The notes beneath the pieces were generated by a model. That model saw only the letters and a list, made by a program, of their open reading frames with translations, ran no database searches and was not told where the DNA came from. 64,000 bases of DNA from Candidatus Gastranaerophilales bacterium (GTDB taxonomy: Bacteria; Cyanobacteriota; Vampirovibrionia; Gastranaerophilales; Gastranaerophilaceae), in contig CAJOJE010000001.1 in NCBI GenBank assembly GCA_905234865.1, positions 114,021 to 178,020 of the forward strand, in the 5' to 3' direction. Positions within the stretch are counted from its first letter, which is position 1, and every line of letters begins with the position of its first letter. Made by a program: the position numbers and the translations under genes. Shown here in pieces: positions 1,171-62,227 of the stretch.

Positions 1171-2047
1171 AAAATTTTTTGATTTTTATTTTATTATCTG
1201 ACAAAACGCCGATTGATACAAGTTTGTTATCAAAAATTAAAAAAACAGGCTCATTTTTTCGTATGTTTTTTGCATTGTGAGGAAAATTAATTGCTATGCC
1301 GTTTTTAACCATATTGTAATTTTTTATGTCAATTGTGATTTTATTGTTAATGATTGCATCTGTGGGGTTGATTGAGATGTTTTCAATATTGTCTTTTGTT
1401 ACATCTTCAATTTTAATCGAATTTTGTATTGAAAAATTTCCGCATTTTGTTCTTGTTAATTTTGTAAGGTATGCTTTTGTATTTAATTTTTTAGCGATAT
1501 CCTCCGCTAAAGTTCTTATATATGTTCCTTTTGAACAATTAACAAGGATTTTTGCCGTATAATTTTTGCAATCAAAATCTTGTAAAGCTATATTAAAAAT
1601 TTCAATTGTTCTTTTTGGAATTTCAATTTCTTTTTCGGGATTTTTTCTTGCTACATCGCACAGTTTTTTCCCTTGAACCTTTATTGCGGAAAATTTTGGA
1701 GGAGTTTGCTCTATTTTTCCGATAAATTCTTTTAATATTGATGTTAAATCATTTTTTGTAAAATGCGGAATTGTTTCACATTTTGTGATTTCGCCTTCTC
1801 TGTCAAGCGTGTTTGAAGTATAGCCGAATTGAATTTCTGCAATGTATTCTTTGTCGGAAGGAAGATAATCCAATAACTTCGAGGCTTTATTTATTCCTAT
1901 TTGTAAGACACCGTCCGCCATGGGGTCAAGAGTTCCCGAGTGTCCGATTTTTTTAATGTTTAATATTTTTCTCAACTTGTAAATAACGTCAAAAGATGTT
2001 ATTCCTTCGGGCTTATAGATGTTTAAAAAACAAAAGACGTTATCCAA
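1163..2047 (-). CDS. truB: tRNA pseudouridine(55) synthase TruB
   Basis: GHSGTLDPMADGVL catalytic-Asp motif and 294 aa length. Lies in the conserved infB-rbfA-truB order. Confidence 0.95.
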   Translation of the reverse strand: MDNVFCFLNIYKPEGITSFDVIYKLRKILNIKKIGHSGTLDPMADGVLQIGINKASKLLDYLPSDKEYIAEIQFGYTSNTLDREGEITKCETIPHFTKNDLTSILKEFIGKIEQTPPKFSAIKVQGKKLCDVARKNPEKEIEIPKRTIEIFNIALQDFDCKNYTAKILVNCSKGTYIRTLAEDIAKKLNTKAYLTKLTRTKCGNFSIQNSIKIEDVTKDNIENISINPTDAIINNKITIDIKNYNMVKNGIAINFPHNAKNIRKNEPVFLIFDNKLVSIGVLSDNKIKIKKFFG

Positions 2048-2048
2048 A

Positions 2049-2402
2049 TTAAAGCTCGCCCTTTGAAATTTTGTCTATTAAATCGGAAATCCTTGCGCCT
2101 CTTTCTAAAGATTCGTCTAAAATAAAATTTAGTTCGGGTGTTAATCTTAAACGAACTCTTTTTCCGATTTCATATCTGATTTTGGGTGTATTTTTTTGTA
2201 TGGCTTCTTTAATTTCTTCTTTTTTCTTGTCGTCTGAAGCTAAAACGCTGTAATATATTTTTGCATAAGAATTATCATGTGATACTTCAACATCGGTTAT
2301 TGAAACCAATCCCGAAATTTTAGGGTCTTTAATATCTCTTAAAAGGACGTCGGAAATTTCTTTCATTAAAGTTTTTCTGACTCTTTCATTTCTTAATGTC
2401 AT
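2049..2402 (-). CDS. rbfA: ribosome-binding factor A
   Basis: 117 aa with RbfA-like sequence (RVRKTLMKEISDVL...TDVEVS.D...AKIYYS), located between infB and truB. Confidence 0.9.
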   Translation of the reverse strand: MTLRNERVRKTLMKEISDVLLRDIKDPKISGLVSITDVEVSHDNSYAKIYYSVLASDDKKKEEIKEAIQKNTPKIRYEIGKRVRLRLTPELNFILDESLERGARISDLIDKISKGEL

Positions 2403-2411
2403 TTGATAATC

Positions 2412-5012
2412 CTATTCTAAACTGCTTCTTTCAACTTCTTTCGTCGTTGAAACTTCGATGATGTCGCCAACTTCTATATCGTTAAATTTAAAGAAGGAAA
2501 TTCCGCATTCAAAACCTGTTGCAACTTCTTTAACGTCATCTTTGAAACGTTTAAGCTGGTCGATTTCACCTTTAAATATTTCAACATTATTTCTTTTAAC
2601 GATTGCTTGTTTTGAACGGACGATTTTTCCTTCCGTAACGTAGCAGCCTGCAATTCTGGTTGTTTTTCCGATTGTGAAAATTTGTCTTACTTCGGCTTTA
2701 CCGAGTTCGACTTCTTCAATAACGGGCGCCAAAAGTGAGAGCATTGTCTTTTCGACATCTTCTAACACCTGATAAATGATATCATACTTTTTGATTTTAA
2801 CACCTTCTCTGTCTGCTGCCATTATTGCGTTTGAATCTTCTTTAACGGTGAAGCCCAAAATAATTGCGTCCGATGCCGAAGCAAGCATAACATCAGCTTC
2901 CGAAATATCACCTACGCCGACGTGGATAATTTTTGGAACGATTTTTGATGATTTAACGTTTTGAATTGCTTGTGAAACTGCTTCTGCCGAACCGTTCGTG
3001 TTTGCTTTAATGATAAGATTTAAGTTAATAATTTCATCATTGCTTAAAGTTTCTTTTGTAACATGGGATACCGCCATTGCTTCAAGTCTTGTCGTTCTTT
3101 CTTTGAGTTTTCTCTCTTGAACTATTCTTTTCATTTCTCGTTCATTTTCAACGACTTCAAGCCTGTCGCCCGCTTGAGGAACTTCATTTAATCCTAAAAT
3201 TTCAACAGGTGTTGAAGGTCCGACTGATTTAACTCGTCTGCCCGAATCGTCGATTAAAGCTCTTGCTTTACCGCCCACATTTCCTACAACTATTGAATCT
3301 TTAACCGTTAATGTTCCGTTTTGAATTAAAACGTGCGCAACCGGTCCTTTACCTTTATCAAGGTTTGCTTCGATTACAATACCCATTGCGGGACAATCTT
3401 CAACCGCTTTTAATTCCTGCATGTCGGAAACAAGAAGAATATATTCCAAAAGTTCGTCAATGCCTTTTCCTTGAAGCGCTGAAACATAGACCGCAATTGT
3501 ATCTCCGCCCCAACTTTCGGGAACAAGCCCGTATTCGGTTAACTGTTGCAAGACTTTATCGGGGTTGGCATCGGGCTTGTCAATCTTGTTTACGGCAACA
3601 ATAATCGGAACTCCGGCTGATTTTGCATGGTTTATTGCTTCAACCGTCTGAGGCATAACCCCGTCATCTGCCGCAACGACCAAAATTACAACGTCTGTTG
3701 ACTGTGCGCCTCTTGCTCTCATTTGAGTGAAAGCTTCATGACCGGGCGTATCAATAAAGACAATTTTTCTGTCGTTTAAGAATACCGTATAAGCGCCTAT
3801 GCTTTGAGTAATTCCGCCTACTTCGGTTGATACTATTTTATGTTTTAGAGCACGAATGCTGTCCAACAGAGTTGTCTTACCATGGTCAACATGTCCCATA
3901 ATCGTAACGACGGGCGCTCTTTTAACAAGTTTGCTCTCGTCTGTGTTTTTAATAATGTTTGAAAATTCTTCTTTTTCGATTTCTTCTTCCATAAAGGTTT
4001 CCAAATCTTCGTCCAAAACCTTTATTTCAAAATTTTCCGCAACTTTTTTTGCCGTTTCGACGTCGATAGGCGAATTAACCGTAACGAGAATTTTTTGCAT
4101 CATTAAATATTTAATGATTTCGGCAGGTGTTTTTCTTATTTTGCCTGCCAGTTCGTTAACCGTAACGGGGTGATTAATAACTACTTCCGTTACGTCTTCA
4201 AGTTGTGCGGTTGTTTGAGTATGTTTTTTGTGTTTTTGTTGAACCGCTTTTTCAAGACTTATTCTTTCCTGTTCTTCTTCCTTATTTTTATAAGATTTAT
4301 CTTTTTTCTTTTTCTTTCCTCTCAAGCCTTGATTTTGGTAGATATCTTGAGAAATCATATGCCTTACGACCGGCGCTTTTGAGCTTTTATTCTCCTGTTC
4401 GCCGCCTTGCTTTTTCTTTTCGTTTTCTTTCTCTTTTTTATCCTGAGATTTTTCTTCAGCCTGCTTTTTGTTTTCAATATTTTTTTTACCGAAATTCTTC
4501 TTAATCATTGAAGGAATATCGGGTGTTCTTTCGATAACCGGCTTTTTAATTTCAATTTTTACTTCTTTTTTAGTTTCCGTCTTCGTATCTTCTTTAAGTG
4601 CTTCGGGCTTAACTTCAGGCTTTACGGGCTCTTTTTTCTGTTTATGAGAAGTTGAAACCGGAGCAGGACGAACAATTTCTAATTTTGATTTCATTCTTTT
4701 CGGCTCAATAATTTTTAAGCCCTTTTCAATAACGGGAGTTTGAACATTTTCCGCCTTTTTCTCTATCGTCGATTCTTGTTTTTCTTCTTTAACTTCGGTT
4801 TTTGGTTTTTCTTTAACTTTTTTAACAACAAACGCTTTTGGTTTTGCTTTTTTGTCCGACGGATGTTTTATGAAATTTCTGATTTTAATGGCAGTATCCG
4901 GAGTAACGGAAGCACTATGGGATTTAAACGTTATCCCAAGTCCCGCCTCAACTTTAGTCATCAGCTCTTTTGCCGTTAAATTTAATTCATCTGCCAGTTC
5001 GTGTACTCTCAT
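2412..5012 (-). CDS. infB: translation initiation factor IF-2
   Basis: 866 aa. K/E-rich N-terminal region, GTPase motifs (GHVDHGKTTLLD, DTPGH, NKID) and IF-2 C-terminal domains. Confidence 0.97.
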   Translation of the reverse strand: MRVHELADELNLTAKELMTKVEAGLGITFKSHSASVTPDTAIKIRNFIKHPSDKKAKPKAFVVKKVKEKPKTEVKEEKQESTIEKKAENVQTPVIEKGLKIIEPKRMKSKLEIVRPAPVSTSHKQKKEPVKPEVKPEALKEDTKTETKKEVKIEIKKPVIERTPDIPSMIKKNFGKKNIENKKQAEEKSQDKKEKENEKKKQGGEQENKSSKAPVVRHMISQDIYQNQGLRGKKKKKDKSYKNKEEEQERISLEKAVQQKHKKHTQTTAQLEDVTEVVINHPVTVNELAGKIRKTPAEIIKYLMMQKILVTVNSPIDVETAKKVAENFEIKVLDEDLETFMEEEIEKEEFSNIIKNTDESKLVKRAPVVTIMGHVDHGKTTLLDSIRALKHKIVSTEVGGITQSIGAYTVFLNDRKIVFIDTPGHEAFTQMRARGAQSTDVVILVVAADDGVMPQTVEAINHAKSAGVPIIVAVNKIDKPDANPDKVLQQLTEYGLVPESWGGDTIAVYVSALQGKGIDELLEYILLVSDMQELKAVEDCPAMGIVIEANLDKGKGPVAHVLIQNGTLTVKDSIVVGNVGGKARALIDDSGRRVKSVGPSTPVEILGLNEVPQAGDRLEVVENEREMKRIVQERKLKERTTRLEAMAVSHVTKETLSNDEIINLNLIIKANTNGSAEAVSQAIQNVKSSKIVPKIIHVGVGDISEADVMLASASDAIILGFTVKEDSNAIMAADREGVKIKKYDIIYQVLEDVEKTMLSLLAPVIEEVELGKAEVRQIFTIGKTTRIAGCYVTEGKIVRSKQAIVKRNNVEIFKGEIDQLKRFKDDVKEVATGFECGISFFKFNDIEVGDIIEVSTTKEVERSSLE

Positions 5013-13998: not shown

Positions 13999-15108
13999 TT
14001 ATTTACCTAAAAGTGCTTTAAGCATAACGGCAACACCAAGCTGTTTATCTACGTGTCCGCTGTCATAAACTCCGTCTGCGACATATTTTCCGGATGTATA
14101 GTTTGTTGTGCCCGCCCAAACGTAGGGAGATGACACACCTTTATTTCTGTATCCCAATCCGTTGTATCTCTCGGCCATATCATACCATGTCGATATATCA
14201 TTTGTAACGGAATAACCTTTAAGTGCGTCAATTGCGGATTCTTCCCAGCTTGAAAACTCGCCTAAGGGGCCGCCGTCATGAAGTCTTGCATCGAAGCTTC
14301 CCGATGCTTCTCTCCAATGTATTGCGGCGATTAATTCCGCAGGAATACCCGTTTTTTGGGATACCGATTGATACCTTGATTTATTTTGTTCGTAATGAGA
14401 TTTGAATTGTTCAAGAGCACTTTGCTGGCTTGAATCAAGATTTTCCGTAAAGTTAAAGTTGACGTCACTTGCATTAACGGAAGGTGTTGATGTTCCGTTT
14501 GAGGTATCGACGTTAAAGGTTCCCGTTTTTGAATCTCTCAAATTAAGCGCAGCTTGTTTTGCTTTTGCTTTATCGTCAGCTTCCGCCGCTTCTTCAAGTT
14601 TTTTAATCTGTTCTTCAAGAGTCGAAGTTAAGCTTACGATTTGTTTCCTTAAATTTTGAAGCTCGGTTGTGGCACTTTGTGCTTCGGAAAGTGCGCTCGA
14701 CATTTTGTCTTTATCTTTGGTGGAACCCATACTGCTGTATGATTTCCTTCGTTTTTCCTCTAATTCATCTATTTTTTTATACAACTCCAGTAATTGCTTG
14801 TCGTAGTTGTCTTGCAATTCATCGAGTTGTTCATCAATTTTTGCGTTTCCCGTTTTATGAGAAGAAGATTTATCATCATCCCCGCTTGTGTCATCGTCGT
14901 CCGTTAATGTATCCGTTTCGTCAATATCTTCATCGGTGTCGTCAATATCAATATCAACATCTATAAATTCGTCCTCGGTTACGATTTTATCTTTATCTTT
15001 ATCCAATTTTTTAAGCTGCTTGTTGGATGTTATTCCGTCTTCTTTAAGGATTTGATAAAGTTCTCTTGATTCAATTTTGTAATCGCCGATTCTGAATGTT
15101 TCGCTCAT
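13999..15108 (-). CDS. coiled-coil protein with C-terminal lysozyme-family-like domain
   Basis: Start moved to the ATG at 15108 (MSETF..., preceded by AGAGG). Architecture is an acidic D/T-rich tract, then a coiled coil, then a C-terminal ..HWREASGSF...YNGLGYR...SPYVWAGTTNYTSGKYVADG.. segment resembling an uncharacterised lysozyme-family domain. No signal peptide. Confidence 0.5.
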   Translation of the reverse strand: MSETFRIGDYKIESRELYQILKEDGITSNKQLKKLDKDKDKIVTEDEFIDVDIDIDDTDEDIDETDTLTDDDDTSGDDDKSSSHKTGNAKIDEQLDELQDNYDKQLLELYKKIDELEEKRRKSYSSMGSTKDKDKMSSALSEAQSATTELQNLRKQIVSLTSTLEEQIKKLEEAAEADDKAKAKQAALNLRDSKTGTFNVDTSNGTSTPSVNASDVNFNFTENLDSSQQSALEQFKSHYEQNKSRYQSVSQKTGIPAELIAAIHWREASGSFDARLHDGGPLGEFSSWEESAIDALKGYSVTNDISTWYDMAERYNGLGYRNKGVSSPYVWAGTTNYTSGKYVADGVYDSGHVDKQLGVAVMLKALLGK

Positions 15109-23132: not shown

Positions 23133-23648
23133 ATGAGCATAAATTCCGTTTCACAGGCAATGTCGGCATCAAGTTGGGGAGTAAGCGCAATAAGGCTTCC
23201 TGAAGATATTATTCAAAAACTTATTGAGCTCGGGTATAATCCAAATGAAGTTACGACATTGGCGCAGGCTAAAGATTTAATTCAAAAATCCGAAAATCAA
23301 GCACAAAATAACTCTAATTCAAACTCAAAACAAAATAAAAGTGATGATAATAAGGATAACCCCGCTTTATATTTGAGGGCAAAAAATCTTGCGCAAAAAA
23401 TGGGATTAAATGTCGGCAGCAATCTTACCTTAGATGATATTTTATCCAAAATTTCGGATGAATCGGATAAAATTATGAAAAAAGCCGTTGACTGTAACGA
23501 CAGATTGCTTTTTGAAAAGGCAAAAATGTTTAAATCGGAATTACAATCGCTTCAAGAAGATGTAAACGGCGGCGGTATTTCTAACGGAATCGTGTATTCA
23601 TATATGGATATGATTGCAAAACAAAATAAATTAGCTCTTGGACTATAA
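23133..23648 (+). CDS. hypothetical protein (N-terminal MSINSVSQ motif)
   Basis: 171 aa with an N/S/Q-rich linker and no signal peptide. No recognisable family. Confidence 0.5.
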   Translation: MSINSVSQAMSASSWGVSAIRLPEDIIQKLIELGYNPNEVTTLAQAKDLIQKSENQAQNNSNSNSKQNKSDDNKDNPALYLRAKNLAQKMGLNVGSNLTLDDILSKISDESDKIMKKAVDCNDRLLFEKAKMFKSELQSLQEDVNGGGISNGIVYSYMDMIAKQNKLALGL

Positions 23649-58875: not shown

Positions 58876-59385
58876 TTATTGATCGGATTCATAGTTTTTA
58901 TCAATCAATTTTGCAAAATCGGAAGGCTTGATATCTTTGATAAAATTTCTAAATTCTTGAGCTTCTTCTTCATCTTTATCTTTATCAACGGAAACCGCAC
59001 CATCCATAATAACTCCGGCTGCAACAAAAATCGGTGCCGAAGCTCTAATTGCAATTGCAATGGCATCTGACGGTCTTGCATCGATTTCTATTTCTTTACC
59101 GTCTTTATCGATTAAAAAGATAGAAGAAAAATATGTTTGCTCATCAACGTCATTTATTTCAATCCTGTCAATTCTTGCACCGGTTTGATTTGCAAAATTA
59201 ATAAATAAATCATGAGTCAGGGGTCTTGTTGACGGAATATTTTCAATTTTTCTGATAATGGAACTGGCTTCGGCGGAGCCTATCCAAATCGGAAGTGCTT
59301 TTCTGTTTTCACTGTCGTTTAAAACTATAATCGGGGAACCGTTTCTGGTATCTATTGCAATTCCCATAACTTTCATTTCAATCAT
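58876..59385 (-). CDS. bifunctional nuclease (BFN) family protein
   Basis: ..PIIVLNDSENRKALPIWIGSAEASSI...TRPLTHDL...ARPSDAIAIAIRASAPIFV.. matches the BFN domain pattern. Confidence 0.8.
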   Translation of the reverse strand: MIEMKVMGIAIDTRNGSPIIVLNDSENRKALPIWIGSAEASSIIRKIENIPSTRPLTHDLFINFANQTGARIDRIEINDVDEQTYFSSIFLIDKDGKEIEIDARPSDAIAIAIRASAPIFVAAGVIMDGAVSVDKDKDEEEAQEFRNFIKDIKPSDFAKLIDKNYESDQ

Positions 59386-59487: not shown

Positions 59488-60858
59488 TTACCAAATGAAA
59501 TCTACAAATGAATCCCAAGCGCTTGATATGCCGTCGCCTAACCATGAGAAGAAACTGCCTATTCCGTTCATACAGCTTCTGATAAGGCCGGGTTTATCTG
59601 CTTTACAACCGAGAGTTTGAATTGCTTCTTCTCTGGTGCAGCCTGTGGATTTTCTTAAAGCAAATATTTTTGCTTCATCTTCATCAGAGTATTTGTCCGG
59701 TTCTTTAGCGAGTTCTTCAGGTACCTCATATCCTAAAGATTTCAAGTATTCAACCGCTTCATCTCTTTTGAAGCCGTAAATTAAAAGATTGTTTAATTTT
59801 TGTTCAATTTCCGATGTATCACCTTTAGCTTTTGCTTTAGAACCGAGTTGTTGAATTGCTTCATCTCTTGATATGCCGTATTTGTCCATCAAGAGTTGAA
59901 TTTGTTTTTCGGTACCTTCGTTATAAATACCCAGTTTTGCCTGTTCTTCGTCGCTTACGCCGTAGCCGTTAGCTTTTGTTGCTTGAAGCGCTTCGTTTAT
60001 ATTGCCGTAAACACCGGCATCAACAAGTTCTTGAAGATCTTGTGCGGTTAGCATTATTTGATTGCCGTCAGCATCGACTTTAACGGGTACCTGTCTGCCG
60101 TTTACGTTATATTGTTGCGTCGTAACGCCTTGATTAGGTCTGGTAACCACATACCCCGGACCCCAAGGATATTCGAGAAGTCCCGAAGGATTTGTACCGT
60201 TTGTTCCGTTGGTACCATTTGTACCATTTGTGCCGTTAAATCCGTTAGTGCCGTTAACGGCGTTTCTTCCCGCAATTCCGTTTAAACCGTTTGTGCCGTT
60301 AGTTCCGTTGGTTCCATTTGTGCCGTTTCTACCGTTGGTACCGTTAGTTCCGTTCAACCCGTTGGTTCCGTCGGTTCCGTTTGTGCCGTTTCTACCATTG
60401 GTACCGTTAGTTCCGTTTAAACCGTTGGTTCCGTTTGTGCCGTTTCTACCATTGGTACCGTTAGTTCCGTTAGTTCCGTTCAACCCGTTGGTTCCGTTTA
60501 AACCGTTTCTTGTAGTCGGGTTTTGAGTAATAGGGTTAGAAGAATTAGACGGTTGATTTGTTCCGTTGCCGTTATTTTGCGGTACAATTCCCGCACCGCC
60601 CGAAGTGAAATCAAATATCGTACCTGTTGTTTGATCATACCAGTTTTTTGTTGCCAAACTGTCTTGACCAAGCTGTTGAAGTTGAAAAATACCGGTATCG
60701 GTATCTTGAAGCGCATAAAATCCGCCTTGGTTATATATCGACGTAGGTGCGGTACCAACGCCCGTTGTTGTGGCATGACCTGCTTGAATACCTGCATAAC
60801 GTCCTTGAAATTTTGCTAATTCATTTGCGGTTGTAGGATTAAAAAACTCGTATCCCAT
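59488..60858 (-). CDS. collagen-like (G-T-N)n repeat protein with conserved N-terminal domain and repeated C-terminal helical motifs
   Basis: 456 aa. The first roughly 80 aa are shared with the neighbouring ORF. Residues 119-223 form 35 G-X-Y triplets. The C-terminus carries 3-4 G(I/F/C)xR(D/E)EA(I/V)xxLG motifs and a Trp/Phe-rich tail. No signal peptide. Confidence 0.7.
60190..60507 (-). repeat. 9-bp-periodic coding tandem repeat (GTN/GLN/GRN triplets)
   Basis: Seen directly as reiterated ccgtt(g/a)gt(t/a)cc-type units. The plus-strand shadow ORF 60209-60526 (VPF/VPL repeats) reflects the same periodicity. Confidence 0.85.
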
Positions 60859-60898: not shown

Positions 60899-61237
60899 TT
60901 ATTTTGCTAAATTTGCTATATCGCCGGCGGACATATTGTTTGATAAACTGTCTGAACTAAAAATGCTTGCAGAATTATTTTTAAAAGAAAATGTGTTTTT
61001 TAATGATTGACTGTACCATTCGTTGGTATTAATGCTGCTTTTACCTAATTGTTGAAGTTGAAATAAGCCTGTGTCGGTATCTTGAAGTGCATAAAATCCG
61101 CCTTGGTTAAATGCTTCCGTCGGTGCCGTTGCGGTTCCTGTTACTCTTGCATGCCCTGCCATAGAACCTATTAAAGTACCTTGAAAACGACCCAATTGGT
61201 TAGCTTTTGTGGGATCAAACATGATAAAATTGCTCAT
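60899..61237 (-). CDS. hypothetical protein, N-domain paralog of the collagen-like protein
   Basis: 112 aa. [22 protein letters not shown] is nearly identical to the neighbouring protein. Confidence 0.6.
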   Translation of the reverse strand: MSNFIMFDPTKANQLGRFQGTLIGSMAGHARVTGTATAPTEAFNQGGFYALQDTDTGLFQLQQLGKSSINTNEWYSQSLKNTFSFKNNSASIFSSDSLSNNMSAGDIANLAK

Positions 61238-61390: not shown

Positions 61391-62227
61391 ATGCTTAAAG
61401 GACCGTTTTTAGAGAAAAATTTCATAGGAGCAACAACAAATTACGATGAAGCCGAAATTGTTCTTATCGGCATGCCTTATGATTGCACATGTTCTAATCG
61501 TCCCGGCACTCGCTTTGCTCCACAGCAAGTAAGAGTTGAATCCGTCGGAATTGAAACTTATTCTCCGTACTTTGATTTTGATATTGCAAACAAGCCTTTT
61601 TTTGATGCGGGGGATTTGGAATTTCCTTTCGGAAACGCTGAAAAAACCTTAAAAATAATTGAAGAAAATACCGACTGTATATACAATGACGGCAAAAAAA
61701 TACTTGGCATAGGCGGAGAACATTTATTAACATTAGCGGAAATAAAAAGTATCCGCAAAAAATATAAAGACCTTGCAGTTATCCAGTTCGATGCACATAC
61801 AGATTTAAGGGAAGAATATTTGGGTGAAAAATTGACACATTCCGGTGTCATGTACAGAATTGCAAAAATTGTCGGATATGATTCTATCGCCCAAATCGGC
61901 ATTCGTTCGGGTCAAAAAGAAGAATTTGATTTCATGAATAAGTATCATACTCTTGTTAAATCGCCTCTTGAACTTGACAAATTCAAAAACAGACCCGTTT
62001 TTCTTACAATAGACGTTGATGTTTTAGACCCCTCATTAATGCCCGGTACAGGAACTCCGGAAGCGGGCGGTATGACTTATATTGAACTTATAAACATGTT
62101 AAAATGCATAAAGGATTTTAATATAATCGGCGCAGACATTATGGAGCTTGCTCCCGATATTGACCCGACAAAAGTTTCAACGGCAACCGCTTGTAAGCTT
62201 ATAAGAGAGGTTTTATCTTTTCTGTAA
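61391..62227 (+). CDS. speB: agmatinase (arginase/ureohydrolase family)
   Basis: Mn-binding blocks GGEHLLT, QFDAHTDL and DVDVLDPS..PGTGTPE. 278 aa. Confidence 0.87.
   Translation: MLKGPFLEKNFIGATTNYDEAEIVLIGMPYDCTCSNRPGTRFAPQQVRVESVGIETYSPYFDFDIANKPFFDAGDLEFPFGNAEKTLKIIEENTDCIYNDGKKILGIGGEHLLTLAEIKSIRKKYKDLAVIQFDAHTDLREEYLGEKLTHSGVMYRIAKIVGYDSIAQIGIRSGQKEEFDFMNKYHTLVKSPLELDKFKNRPVFLTIDVDVLDPSLMPGTGTPEAGGMTYIELINMLKCIKDFNIIGADIMELAPDIDPTKVSTATACKLIREVLSFL

Follow-up and report, generated by a model that had tools for sequence, protein, structure and literature searches.

A proline-free Gly-X-Asn repeat of collagen type in place of a polar inter-domain linker in a fast-evolving protein of gut Gastranaerophilales

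The stretch analysed here, referred to as the window, comprises 64,000 nucleotides of contig CAJOJE010000001.1 from a Candidatus Gastranaerophilales bacterium, whose genome is 1.87 Mb in size, with a GC content of 34% and a completeness of 99.6%. According to the list of open reading frames (ORFs) and their translation, the minus-strand ORF 59488 to 60858 encodes a protein of 456 amino acids (P0001), the middle part of which is a collagen-type tract of 35 consecutive Gly-X-Y triplets (residues 119-223, nucleotides 60190 to 60504). This tract lies where the homologous proteins have an aperiodic polar linker, and it probably serves as a spacer between two conserved domains. The features of the gene and of its upstream paralogue are the following.

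59488 to 60858, minus strand: whole gene of P0001, from ORF and translation; an identical gene is present on an independent ENA contig, and orthologues are found in 12 of the 12 genomes of the genus.
60583 to 60858, minus strand: N-terminal domain (residues 1-92), without signal peptide, 56% identical to the upstream paralogue P0002.
60505 to 60582, minus strand: residual aperiodic linker rich in N, S, T, Q and P (residues 93-118), with an NGNGTN motif; in alignments it matches the first part of the orthologues' N/S/T linkers.
60190 to 60504, minus strand: collagen-type tract (residues 119-223) of 35 G-X-Y triplets, arranged as 27 + A-V-N + 7, with Asn at Y in 33 and no Pro.
60289 to 60486, minus strand: three higher-order copies of 63, 63 and 72 bp within the tract, of the pattern GLN-GTN-(GTN)...[N/D]-GTN(-GTN), from unit parsing and Tandem Repeats Finder (TRF) periods of 54 and 63.
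60049 to 60189, minus strand: conserved post-linker segment (residues 224-270, LxxYPWGxGY..., short beta strands), from conserved alignment columns and AlphaFold2 (AF2) strands of low to moderate confidence.
59599 to 60048, minus strand: helical repeats (residues 271-420), with three or four UBA-like copies of [ST]R[DE]EA[IV]xxLG; AF2 predicted local distance difference test (pLDDT) of 60-84.
59491 to 59598, minus strand: Gly-zipper-like amphipathic tail ending in Trp (residues 421-456), which holds the highest hydropathy windows and is conserved in the orthologues; a putative membrane-binding element.
60899 to 61237, minus strand: upstream paralogue P0002 (112 amino acids), consisting of the N-terminal domain alone and a short tail, and sharing 56% identity with the N-terminal domain of P0001.

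Gly occupies the first position of 34 of the 35 triplets, and the remaining triplet starts with Ala (A200): an unbroken run of 27 triplets is followed by a single A-V-N triplet and by seven further triplets. The X position is filled by Thr in 23 cases, by Leu in five, by Arg in four and by Ile, Val and Phe once each, and the Y position by Asn in 33 cases and by Asp and Ala once each. The tract contains no Pro and five charged residues (four Arg and one Asp) per 105. The Pfam Collagen family PF01391 matches it with 58.6 bits against a cut-off of 27.2 (E = 5e-16), and no other Gly-X-Y run of at least seven triplets was found in the genome. An earlier note, made by a model from the sequence and its translated ORFs, had described the 35 triplets at residues 119-223, with one Ala exception and Asn at Y in all but two of them, as well as a collagen-like period without Pro, and the translation and the Pfam match bear this out. 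Its coordinates (60190-60507) start correctly and end one codon too far, as 60507 includes the codon of N118, and its set of X residues (T/L/R/I/F) is right as far as it goes, Val having been overlooked. The more than 20 N-x-T glycosylation sequons that it announced are present, with 22 N-G-T in the tract (24 N-x-S/T in the whole protein), but to place nearly every Asn in such a sequon was an overstatement, as this applies to 22 of 34.

The whole gene is 100% identical in DNA on an independent ENA metagenome contig, a finding that contradicts an assembly artefact as the source of the tract; as the longest exact internal repeat is, in addition, only 45 bp long, such an artefact is unlikely. Two other features predicted within the repeat were discarded. 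The plus-strand ORF 60209-60526 (105 amino acids) reads the repeat in antisense and can almost certainly be dismissed as a gene, and a terminator-like hairpin at 60242-60260 on the plus strand lies inside the repeat, in a region with one such site against a mean of 2.6 in shuffled sequences.

The position of the tract within the protein family was determined by alignment with nine homologues, in 11 congeneric genomes and in all long members of a set of 17 representatives, and in each case the tract corresponds to a linker rich in N, S and T. The linker of the other members is aperiodic, polar and of low complexity, about 26-123 residues in length, with N, S and T sometimes accompanied by Q or D, and it contains no Gly-X-Y run, save the three-triplet GTQGTQGAT in P0127. 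Both its length (26-145 amino acids over the whole family) and its composition vary, with 44% S in one member and 42% N in another. The linker encoded in the window is the longest, and 105 of its 145 residues are tract, with aperiodic remnants at both ends and the NGNGTN motif directly upstream of the first triplet. Since the tract thus replaces a linker that is variable in all relatives, it is most likely an extended spacer or stalk. The earlier note had listed a stalk or spacer among the possible roles, and this idea gains support from the fact that every other member has a variable polar linker at this place, between two conserved domains. The linker of the sister species was searched for through P0123, the closest relative of the short paralogue (72% identity), and none was found, as the 1.2-kb contig of P0123 carries no long gene. 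Scans of metagenome contigs with a junction 28-mer and with a degenerate pattern of the N-terminal domain gave no match.

At the DNA level, the match percentage reported by TRF is only 68% for a period of 9 and rises to 76% and 79% for periods of 54 and 63, respectively. The 35 units comprise 17 distinct 9-mers, and the identity at an offset of 9 bp is 67%, so that the near-perfect 9-bp-periodic repeat of the earlier note could not be retained. The higher-order units that it had proposed are real and present in three copies, with the longest exact internal repeat at an offset of 54. The ratios of synonymous to non-synonymous differences between these three copies are 2:1, 2:0 and 5:1. Across the 35 units, heterozygosity reaches 0.68 at the third positions of the Gly codon and of the X codon, out of a maximum of 0.75, compared with 0.00 and 0.06 at the first and second positions of Gly and 0.11 and 0.06 at those of Asn. 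When neutral evolution was simulated at the diversity seen in third positions, 8 of the 35 Gly survived on average, and 34 in no case (P ~ 0). Near-random synonymous positions next to nearly invariant Gly and Asn indicate that selection keeps the Gly-x-Asn period; as read from these differences, the repeat is old relative to synonymous turnover, and its Gly and Asn are held by purifying selection. This signature speaks against a fresh, slippage-prone expansion and argues for some Gly-dependent extended conformation. The length variation by slippage that had been anticipated is likewise disfavoured, as the units have diverged at synonymous sites and the exact 456-amino-acid protein was found on four contigs, the exact neighbouring 112-amino-acid protein being also found on four; the contigs were looked up by identity, which makes this last comparison weak with respect to length variation.

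The third positions of the tract are 69-74% A/T, as in the genome, and its GC content at third codon positions (GC3) is 47%, in the top percentile of the genome. Asn is encoded by AAC in 27 of 33 cases (82%) in the tract and in 61% of cases in the remaining gene (96th percentile), and this codon is also favoured in the genes of EF-Tu, EF-G and GAPDH. The codon usage of the gene without the tract lies in the 93rd to 97th percentile for C-ending two-fold codons, beside the EF-Tu, EF-G, GAPDH and pilin-like genes, which suggests that the host protein is highly expressed. More generally, the ORFs of the genome in which the bias towards C-ending codons is strongest include those of EF-Tu, EF-G and GAPDH as well as prepilin-like ones and several that encode functionally unassigned proteins rich in N, S and T. 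These strongly C-biased N/S/T-rich and prepilin-like ORFs may be abundant envelope components.

Homologues P0003 to P0011 and P0013 share with P0001 the N-terminal domain and a C-terminal region of about 230 residues. Their N-termini align with that of P0001 without extension, and the N-terminal hydropathy maximum of P0001 is 0.1, with no N-terminal hydrophobic segment. The N-terminal domain is present in two copies only in the genome (P0001 and P0002), and the tandem arrangement of the paralogues is also found in the congeners L004, L006 and L012. Modelled through P0002 with an alignment of 24 sequences, this domain shows a long helix lying against a sheet of four strands (pLDDT 88.4, predicted TM score 0.70); no neighbour of the model was found by Foldseek in the PDB or in BFVD (best E of 2.7 and 0.7), and the domain may represent a new small fold. 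The AF2 model of the full-length protein is poor (mean pLDDT 48), and a Foldseek search with it is meaningless. A sequence-profile search of the PDB with the protein returned nothing below E = 0.07, and the only Pfam or NCBIfam matches outside the tract were sub-threshold ones to UBA_4 and ANTAR. Weak UBA_4 matches were obtained in six of ten orthologues, the best with E = 1e-3. The C-terminal tail has a hydrophobic moment of 0.42-0.52 in addition to the top hydropathy windows of the protein, and probably holds the protein on a membrane. Elsewhere in the window, a plus-strand ORF of 171 amino acids (23133-23648) has an N-terminal segment, 'IIQKLIELGYNPNEV..AQAKDLIQ', that loosely resembles the C-terminal helical motif of P0001; this motif-like segment is followed by a low-complexity stretch rich in N, S and K.

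The C-terminal domain was found in 12 of the 12 genomes of the genus to which the window belongs and in none of 49 genomes of other genera of the order. A profile of the N-terminal domain, run on 300 genomes of the class, added a single genus, and it detected only 17 representatives among 1.84 billion proteins. One homologue comes from Candidatus Galligastranaerophilus gallistercoris (Gastranaerophilales, Melainabacteria). In the window the gene has speB, coaE, recJ and a BFN nuclease gene as neighbours, and in all 11 congeners it lies between speB and the BFN nuclease gene, the order speB-[paralogues]-BFN being conserved. A distant relative of 434 amino acids occupies the same speB-BFN slot in another genus (L018, positions 1702-3006 of G306:C11). 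Its N-terminal domain is distantly related, and the C-terminal tail is replaced by an internal hydrophobic segment rich in Gly and Ala, which resembles the Gly-zipper_Omp (PF13488) segment of P0137 (26.1 bits against a cut-off of 25). Identity between congeners is about 50-57% in the conserved domains of P0001, compared with 79-85% for the BFN nuclease (58876-59385) and 70-76% for SpeB (61391-62227). With its conserved domains at about 50-57% and its neighbours at 70-85%, the gene is an unusually fast-evolving one in a fixed chromosomal slot.

On balance, we consider it probable that the tract is an inter-domain spacer that took the place of the polar linker in a fast-evolving Gastranaerophilales protein and is kept by selection as an extended stalk. 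The host is a chromosomal protein of one genus of gut Gastranaerophilales (Melainabacteria), in which a small alpha/beta N-terminal domain is followed by the polar linker, a short beta segment, the UBA-like helical repeats and the amphipathic Gly-zipper tail, whose Trp-ended sequence would hold the protein on the membrane. In this species, the proline-free (G-X-N)35 repeat has taken over most of the linker and would form an extended stalk of up to ~30 nm if helical, that is, in a polyproline II or a collagen-like conformation. Such a stalk would determine how far the N-terminal head stands from the C-terminal part near the membrane. It would thereby take the role that disordered linkers play in the orthologues, while being longer and perhaps stiffer.

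Several observations weigh against this interpretation. The orthologues have no Gly period at all, which indicates that a specific structure of the linker is not essential to the function of the family. The six triplets that precede the terminal GTN run hold five non-synonymous departures, most of those in the tract, including the Gly-to-Ala change, which suggests that constraint is relaxed in this part and not uniform along the tract. The evidence for membrane anchoring consists of hydropathy and of Gly-zipper matches in distant relatives. In host-guest collagen peptides, Thr at X and Asn at Y are reportedly among the least helix-favouring residues. The AF2 pLDDT of the tract is below 35, which is the usual outcome with a monomer model and carries no information. 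Finally, (Gly-Pro-Thr)10 adopts a random-coil state as long as its Thr residues carry no sugar (PMC11923368).

The tract might, instead of being kept by selection, be a neutral low-complexity expansion, that is, a disordered linker with a chance 9-bp period generated by slippage or unequal recombination and prone to changes in length. Linker length and composition are indeed unconstrained across the family, motifs of this kind do arise in linkers (GTQGTQGAT in P0127 and NGT-containing N/T runs in P0126), and the tract has both a possible NGNGTN seed just upstream and higher-order copies of 54 and 63 bp. Nevertheless, Gly and Asn have been retained while synonymous sites are near saturation, the units fall into 17 distinct 9-mers with a longest exact repeat of only 45 bp, and the protein is identical on each of the four contigs with the neighbouring gene, so that we regard this origin as unlikely. 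The selected spacer may, conversely, be more ordered than an extended chain, namely a genuine homotrimeric collagen triple helix, forming a rigid rod of ~30 nm in which the flanking domains would register the chains, and thus a trimeric fibre instead of a flexible tether. Such a helix would sharpen the spacer reading and is compatible with it. It would agree with the strict Gly period under purifying selection, with the PF01391 match at E = 5e-16, with an unrelated protein of the same bacterial family (L142) in which a (GTN/GVN)33 tract immediately follows a coiled coil, the classical arrangement for nucleation, and with the wide occurrence of Pro-free G-x-N tracts of up to ~250 triplets, which is hard to explain without a structure. 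However, the tract has no Pro, only five charged residues in 105, one Gly-to-Ala break and orthologous linkers that are aperiodic, and G-T-N is predicted to be among the least stable triplets on the Persikov scale. The helix-stabilising features that were checked (Pro at X, charge pairs, Thr or Gln at Y) were not found, X being mostly Thr and Y being Asn in 33 of 35 triplets. No known trimerisation or registration domain was recognised beside the tract by Pfam, NCBIfam or PDB profiles, nor any Foldseek neighbour, and AF2 confidence in the flanking regions is low. The stability of bacterial collagens is commonly attributed to Pro, to charge and to polar interactions (PMC13138384), and (GPT)10 is unfolded unless glycosylated. 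A true triple helix is thus a possibility that we hold to be doubtful, and its most far-reaching form, an intracellular or unconventionally exported Pro-free (Gly-Thr-Asn)n rod tethered by a Gly-zipper and carrying a head of novel fold, is quite improbable.

The two remaining explanations concern the origin of the tract and its modification. It could have been acquired, as a cassette inserted in frame, from the tail-fibre gene of a phage or from another bacterium's gene for a collagen-like surface protein, as PHROG families of tail fibres and of 'collagen like minor tail' proteins match the tract with E down to 7e-17, its GC3 is in the top percentile of the genome and collagen-like genes occur in 22 of 121 genomes of the same bacterial family. 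These PHROG matches, however, extend over the repeat alone (about residues 104-228), and none falls in the N- or C-terminal domain; the flanking domains also match no entry in the PDB or BFVD. In blastn searches against all fetched Gly-X-Y loci, the best identity was 72.7% (L142), which is about what a shared amino-acid repeat gives, and an exact 19-residue peptide of the tract was absent from 185,579 species genomes. The high GC3 is raised only by the preference for AAC, which is common to the rest of the gene. With no donor match and with native codon usage, there is no sign of recent acquisition; the gene moreover lies in a conserved chromosomal slot, and such an insertion is very unlikely. 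Given the confined PHROG matches, the housekeeping neighbours and the slot shared with the congeners, the phage-derived structure considered in the earlier note was set aside. Still less credible is an N-glycosylated stalk, in which the 22 N-G-T would be modified by a cytoplasmic N-glycosyltransferase of HMW1C type or by a periplasmic oligosaccharyltransferase of PglB type, with the sugars stabilising or shielding the chain. The density of sequons (22 N-G-T in 105 residues, and 24 observed in the linker against 8.9 ± 2.3 in shuffled sequences) and the ability of sugars to stabilise Thr-rich collagen peptides would fit this proposal, but the excess follows automatically from the G-T-N period. 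The linkers of the orthologues are not enriched in sequons, their number being within shuffle expectation in 14 of 15 other family members, several of which have none or one. In answer to the search for HMW1C-like or PglB-like N-glycosyltransferases that the earlier note had proposed, the 99.6%-complete genome gave no match to STT3/PglB (PF02516), for which controls were positive in four archaea, and none to GT41 (PF13844), for which controls were positive in two genomes, the sensitivity of PF13844 for HMW1C-type enzymes being unconfirmed. Furthermore, no extended D/E-x-N-x-S/T sequon is present anywhere in the protein, and N-terminal hydropathy indicates no signal peptide. The glycosylation idea of the earlier note is thus disfavoured, and dense N-G-T sequons in tracts of this type should not be read as evidence of N-glycosylation.

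Taken alone, the finding is a modest one, in that it adds one more bacterial collagen-type repeat, a Pro-free one of G-T-N type. The tract is an ordinary repeat class, common across bacterial phyla, in an unusual setting. The replacement of an aperiodic linker by a selection-kept Gly-x-Asn repeat within a conserved protein offers a clean comparison between a rod and a mere linker. If the tract did form a triple helix, the orthologues with disordered linkers would be a natural 'linker-swap' series, and the G-x-N class would represent a third way to stabilise collagen helices, through hydrogen-bond ladders of Asn side chains, besides imino acids and charge pairs. The host family itself is uncharacterised, fast-evolving and probably highly expressed, and the fold of its N-terminal domain is confidently predicted and has no match in the PDB. 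In gut Melainabacteria, this family may provide a lineage-specific component of the envelope or of a membrane.

Repeats of the same class are frequent in other genomes. (GTN)5 was found in at least 120 loci of Bacteroidota, Actinomycetota, Planctomycetota, Pseudomonadota and an environmental Melainabacterium, always in frame and often without Pro, in tracts of up to ~250 triplets. Within the bacterial family of the window, PF01391 tracts of simple types are present in 22 of 121 genomes; among the examples (L142, L145, L146, L148, L149 and L150) are (GPT)21-30, (GDD)23, (GSV)34 and the (GTN/GVN)33 run that follows a coiled coil. Inspected by eye, the open frames of the host proteins of L144 and L149 show no hydrophobic signal-like N-terminus. 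A search of the literature on collagen-like proteins in Melainabacteria yielded no papers.

Among described proteins, Scl1 and Scl2 of Streptococcus, BclA of Bacillus and Lcl of Legionella likewise have a long Gly-X-Y stalk between a terminal head and an anchoring region. The tract of P0001 differs from theirs by the absence of Pro, by an almost complete lack of charge pairs and by the presence of Asn at Y instead of Thr, Gln or charged residues, and P0001 has no signal peptide, LPXTG motif or exosporium targeting, its flanking domains being unrelated. The NCBIfam models NF038329, NF038330 and NF046116 (Scl/Lcl) matched the repeat only, with 57.9, 35.9 and 45 bits against cut-offs of 325, 400 and 500, respectively. 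Of the same triplet class are the Pro-free G-T-N or G-x-N tracts in uncharacterised secreted or anchored proteins of many phyla, such as those of a metagenome-assembled genome of Candidatus Melainabacteria (L049), of Senegalimassilia (L088) and of a member of the Bacteroidota with 143 Gly-X-Y triplets and no Pro (L096). The inspected proteins of this type have signal peptides, sortase-type or transmembrane anchors and adhesin-like heads, none of which is present in P0001, and, unlike them, P0001 carries its tract in place of a disordered linker in an otherwise conserved family.

With regard to function, the C-terminal linker of FtsZ and the P/Q linker of ZipA are hypervariable spacers of biased composition between a globular part and a membrane-directed element. 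Their likeness to the tract is a functional analogy only, with no relation in sequence or fold, and they are aperiodic, in contrast to the strict Gly period seen here. A parallel in architecture comes from another genus of the Gastranaerophilaceae, in which L144 (G381:C1, about 14206-14379) encodes a protein of ~498 amino acids without signal peptide and with a Pro-free (GTD)24 tract. After this tract comes the Y-[ST]-D-x-E-E-x-x-I-x-A-L-x-x-T-G-x-T-R-E-E-A-I module that P0001 also has (BLASTP identity of 42% over 53 amino acids, E = 9e-5). The N-terminal and distal C-terminal regions of the two proteins differ, and L144 is not an orthologue of P0001. The shared arrangement suggests a recurrent pairing of Gly-X-Y tracts with a UBA-like module in the Gastranaerophilaceae lineage.

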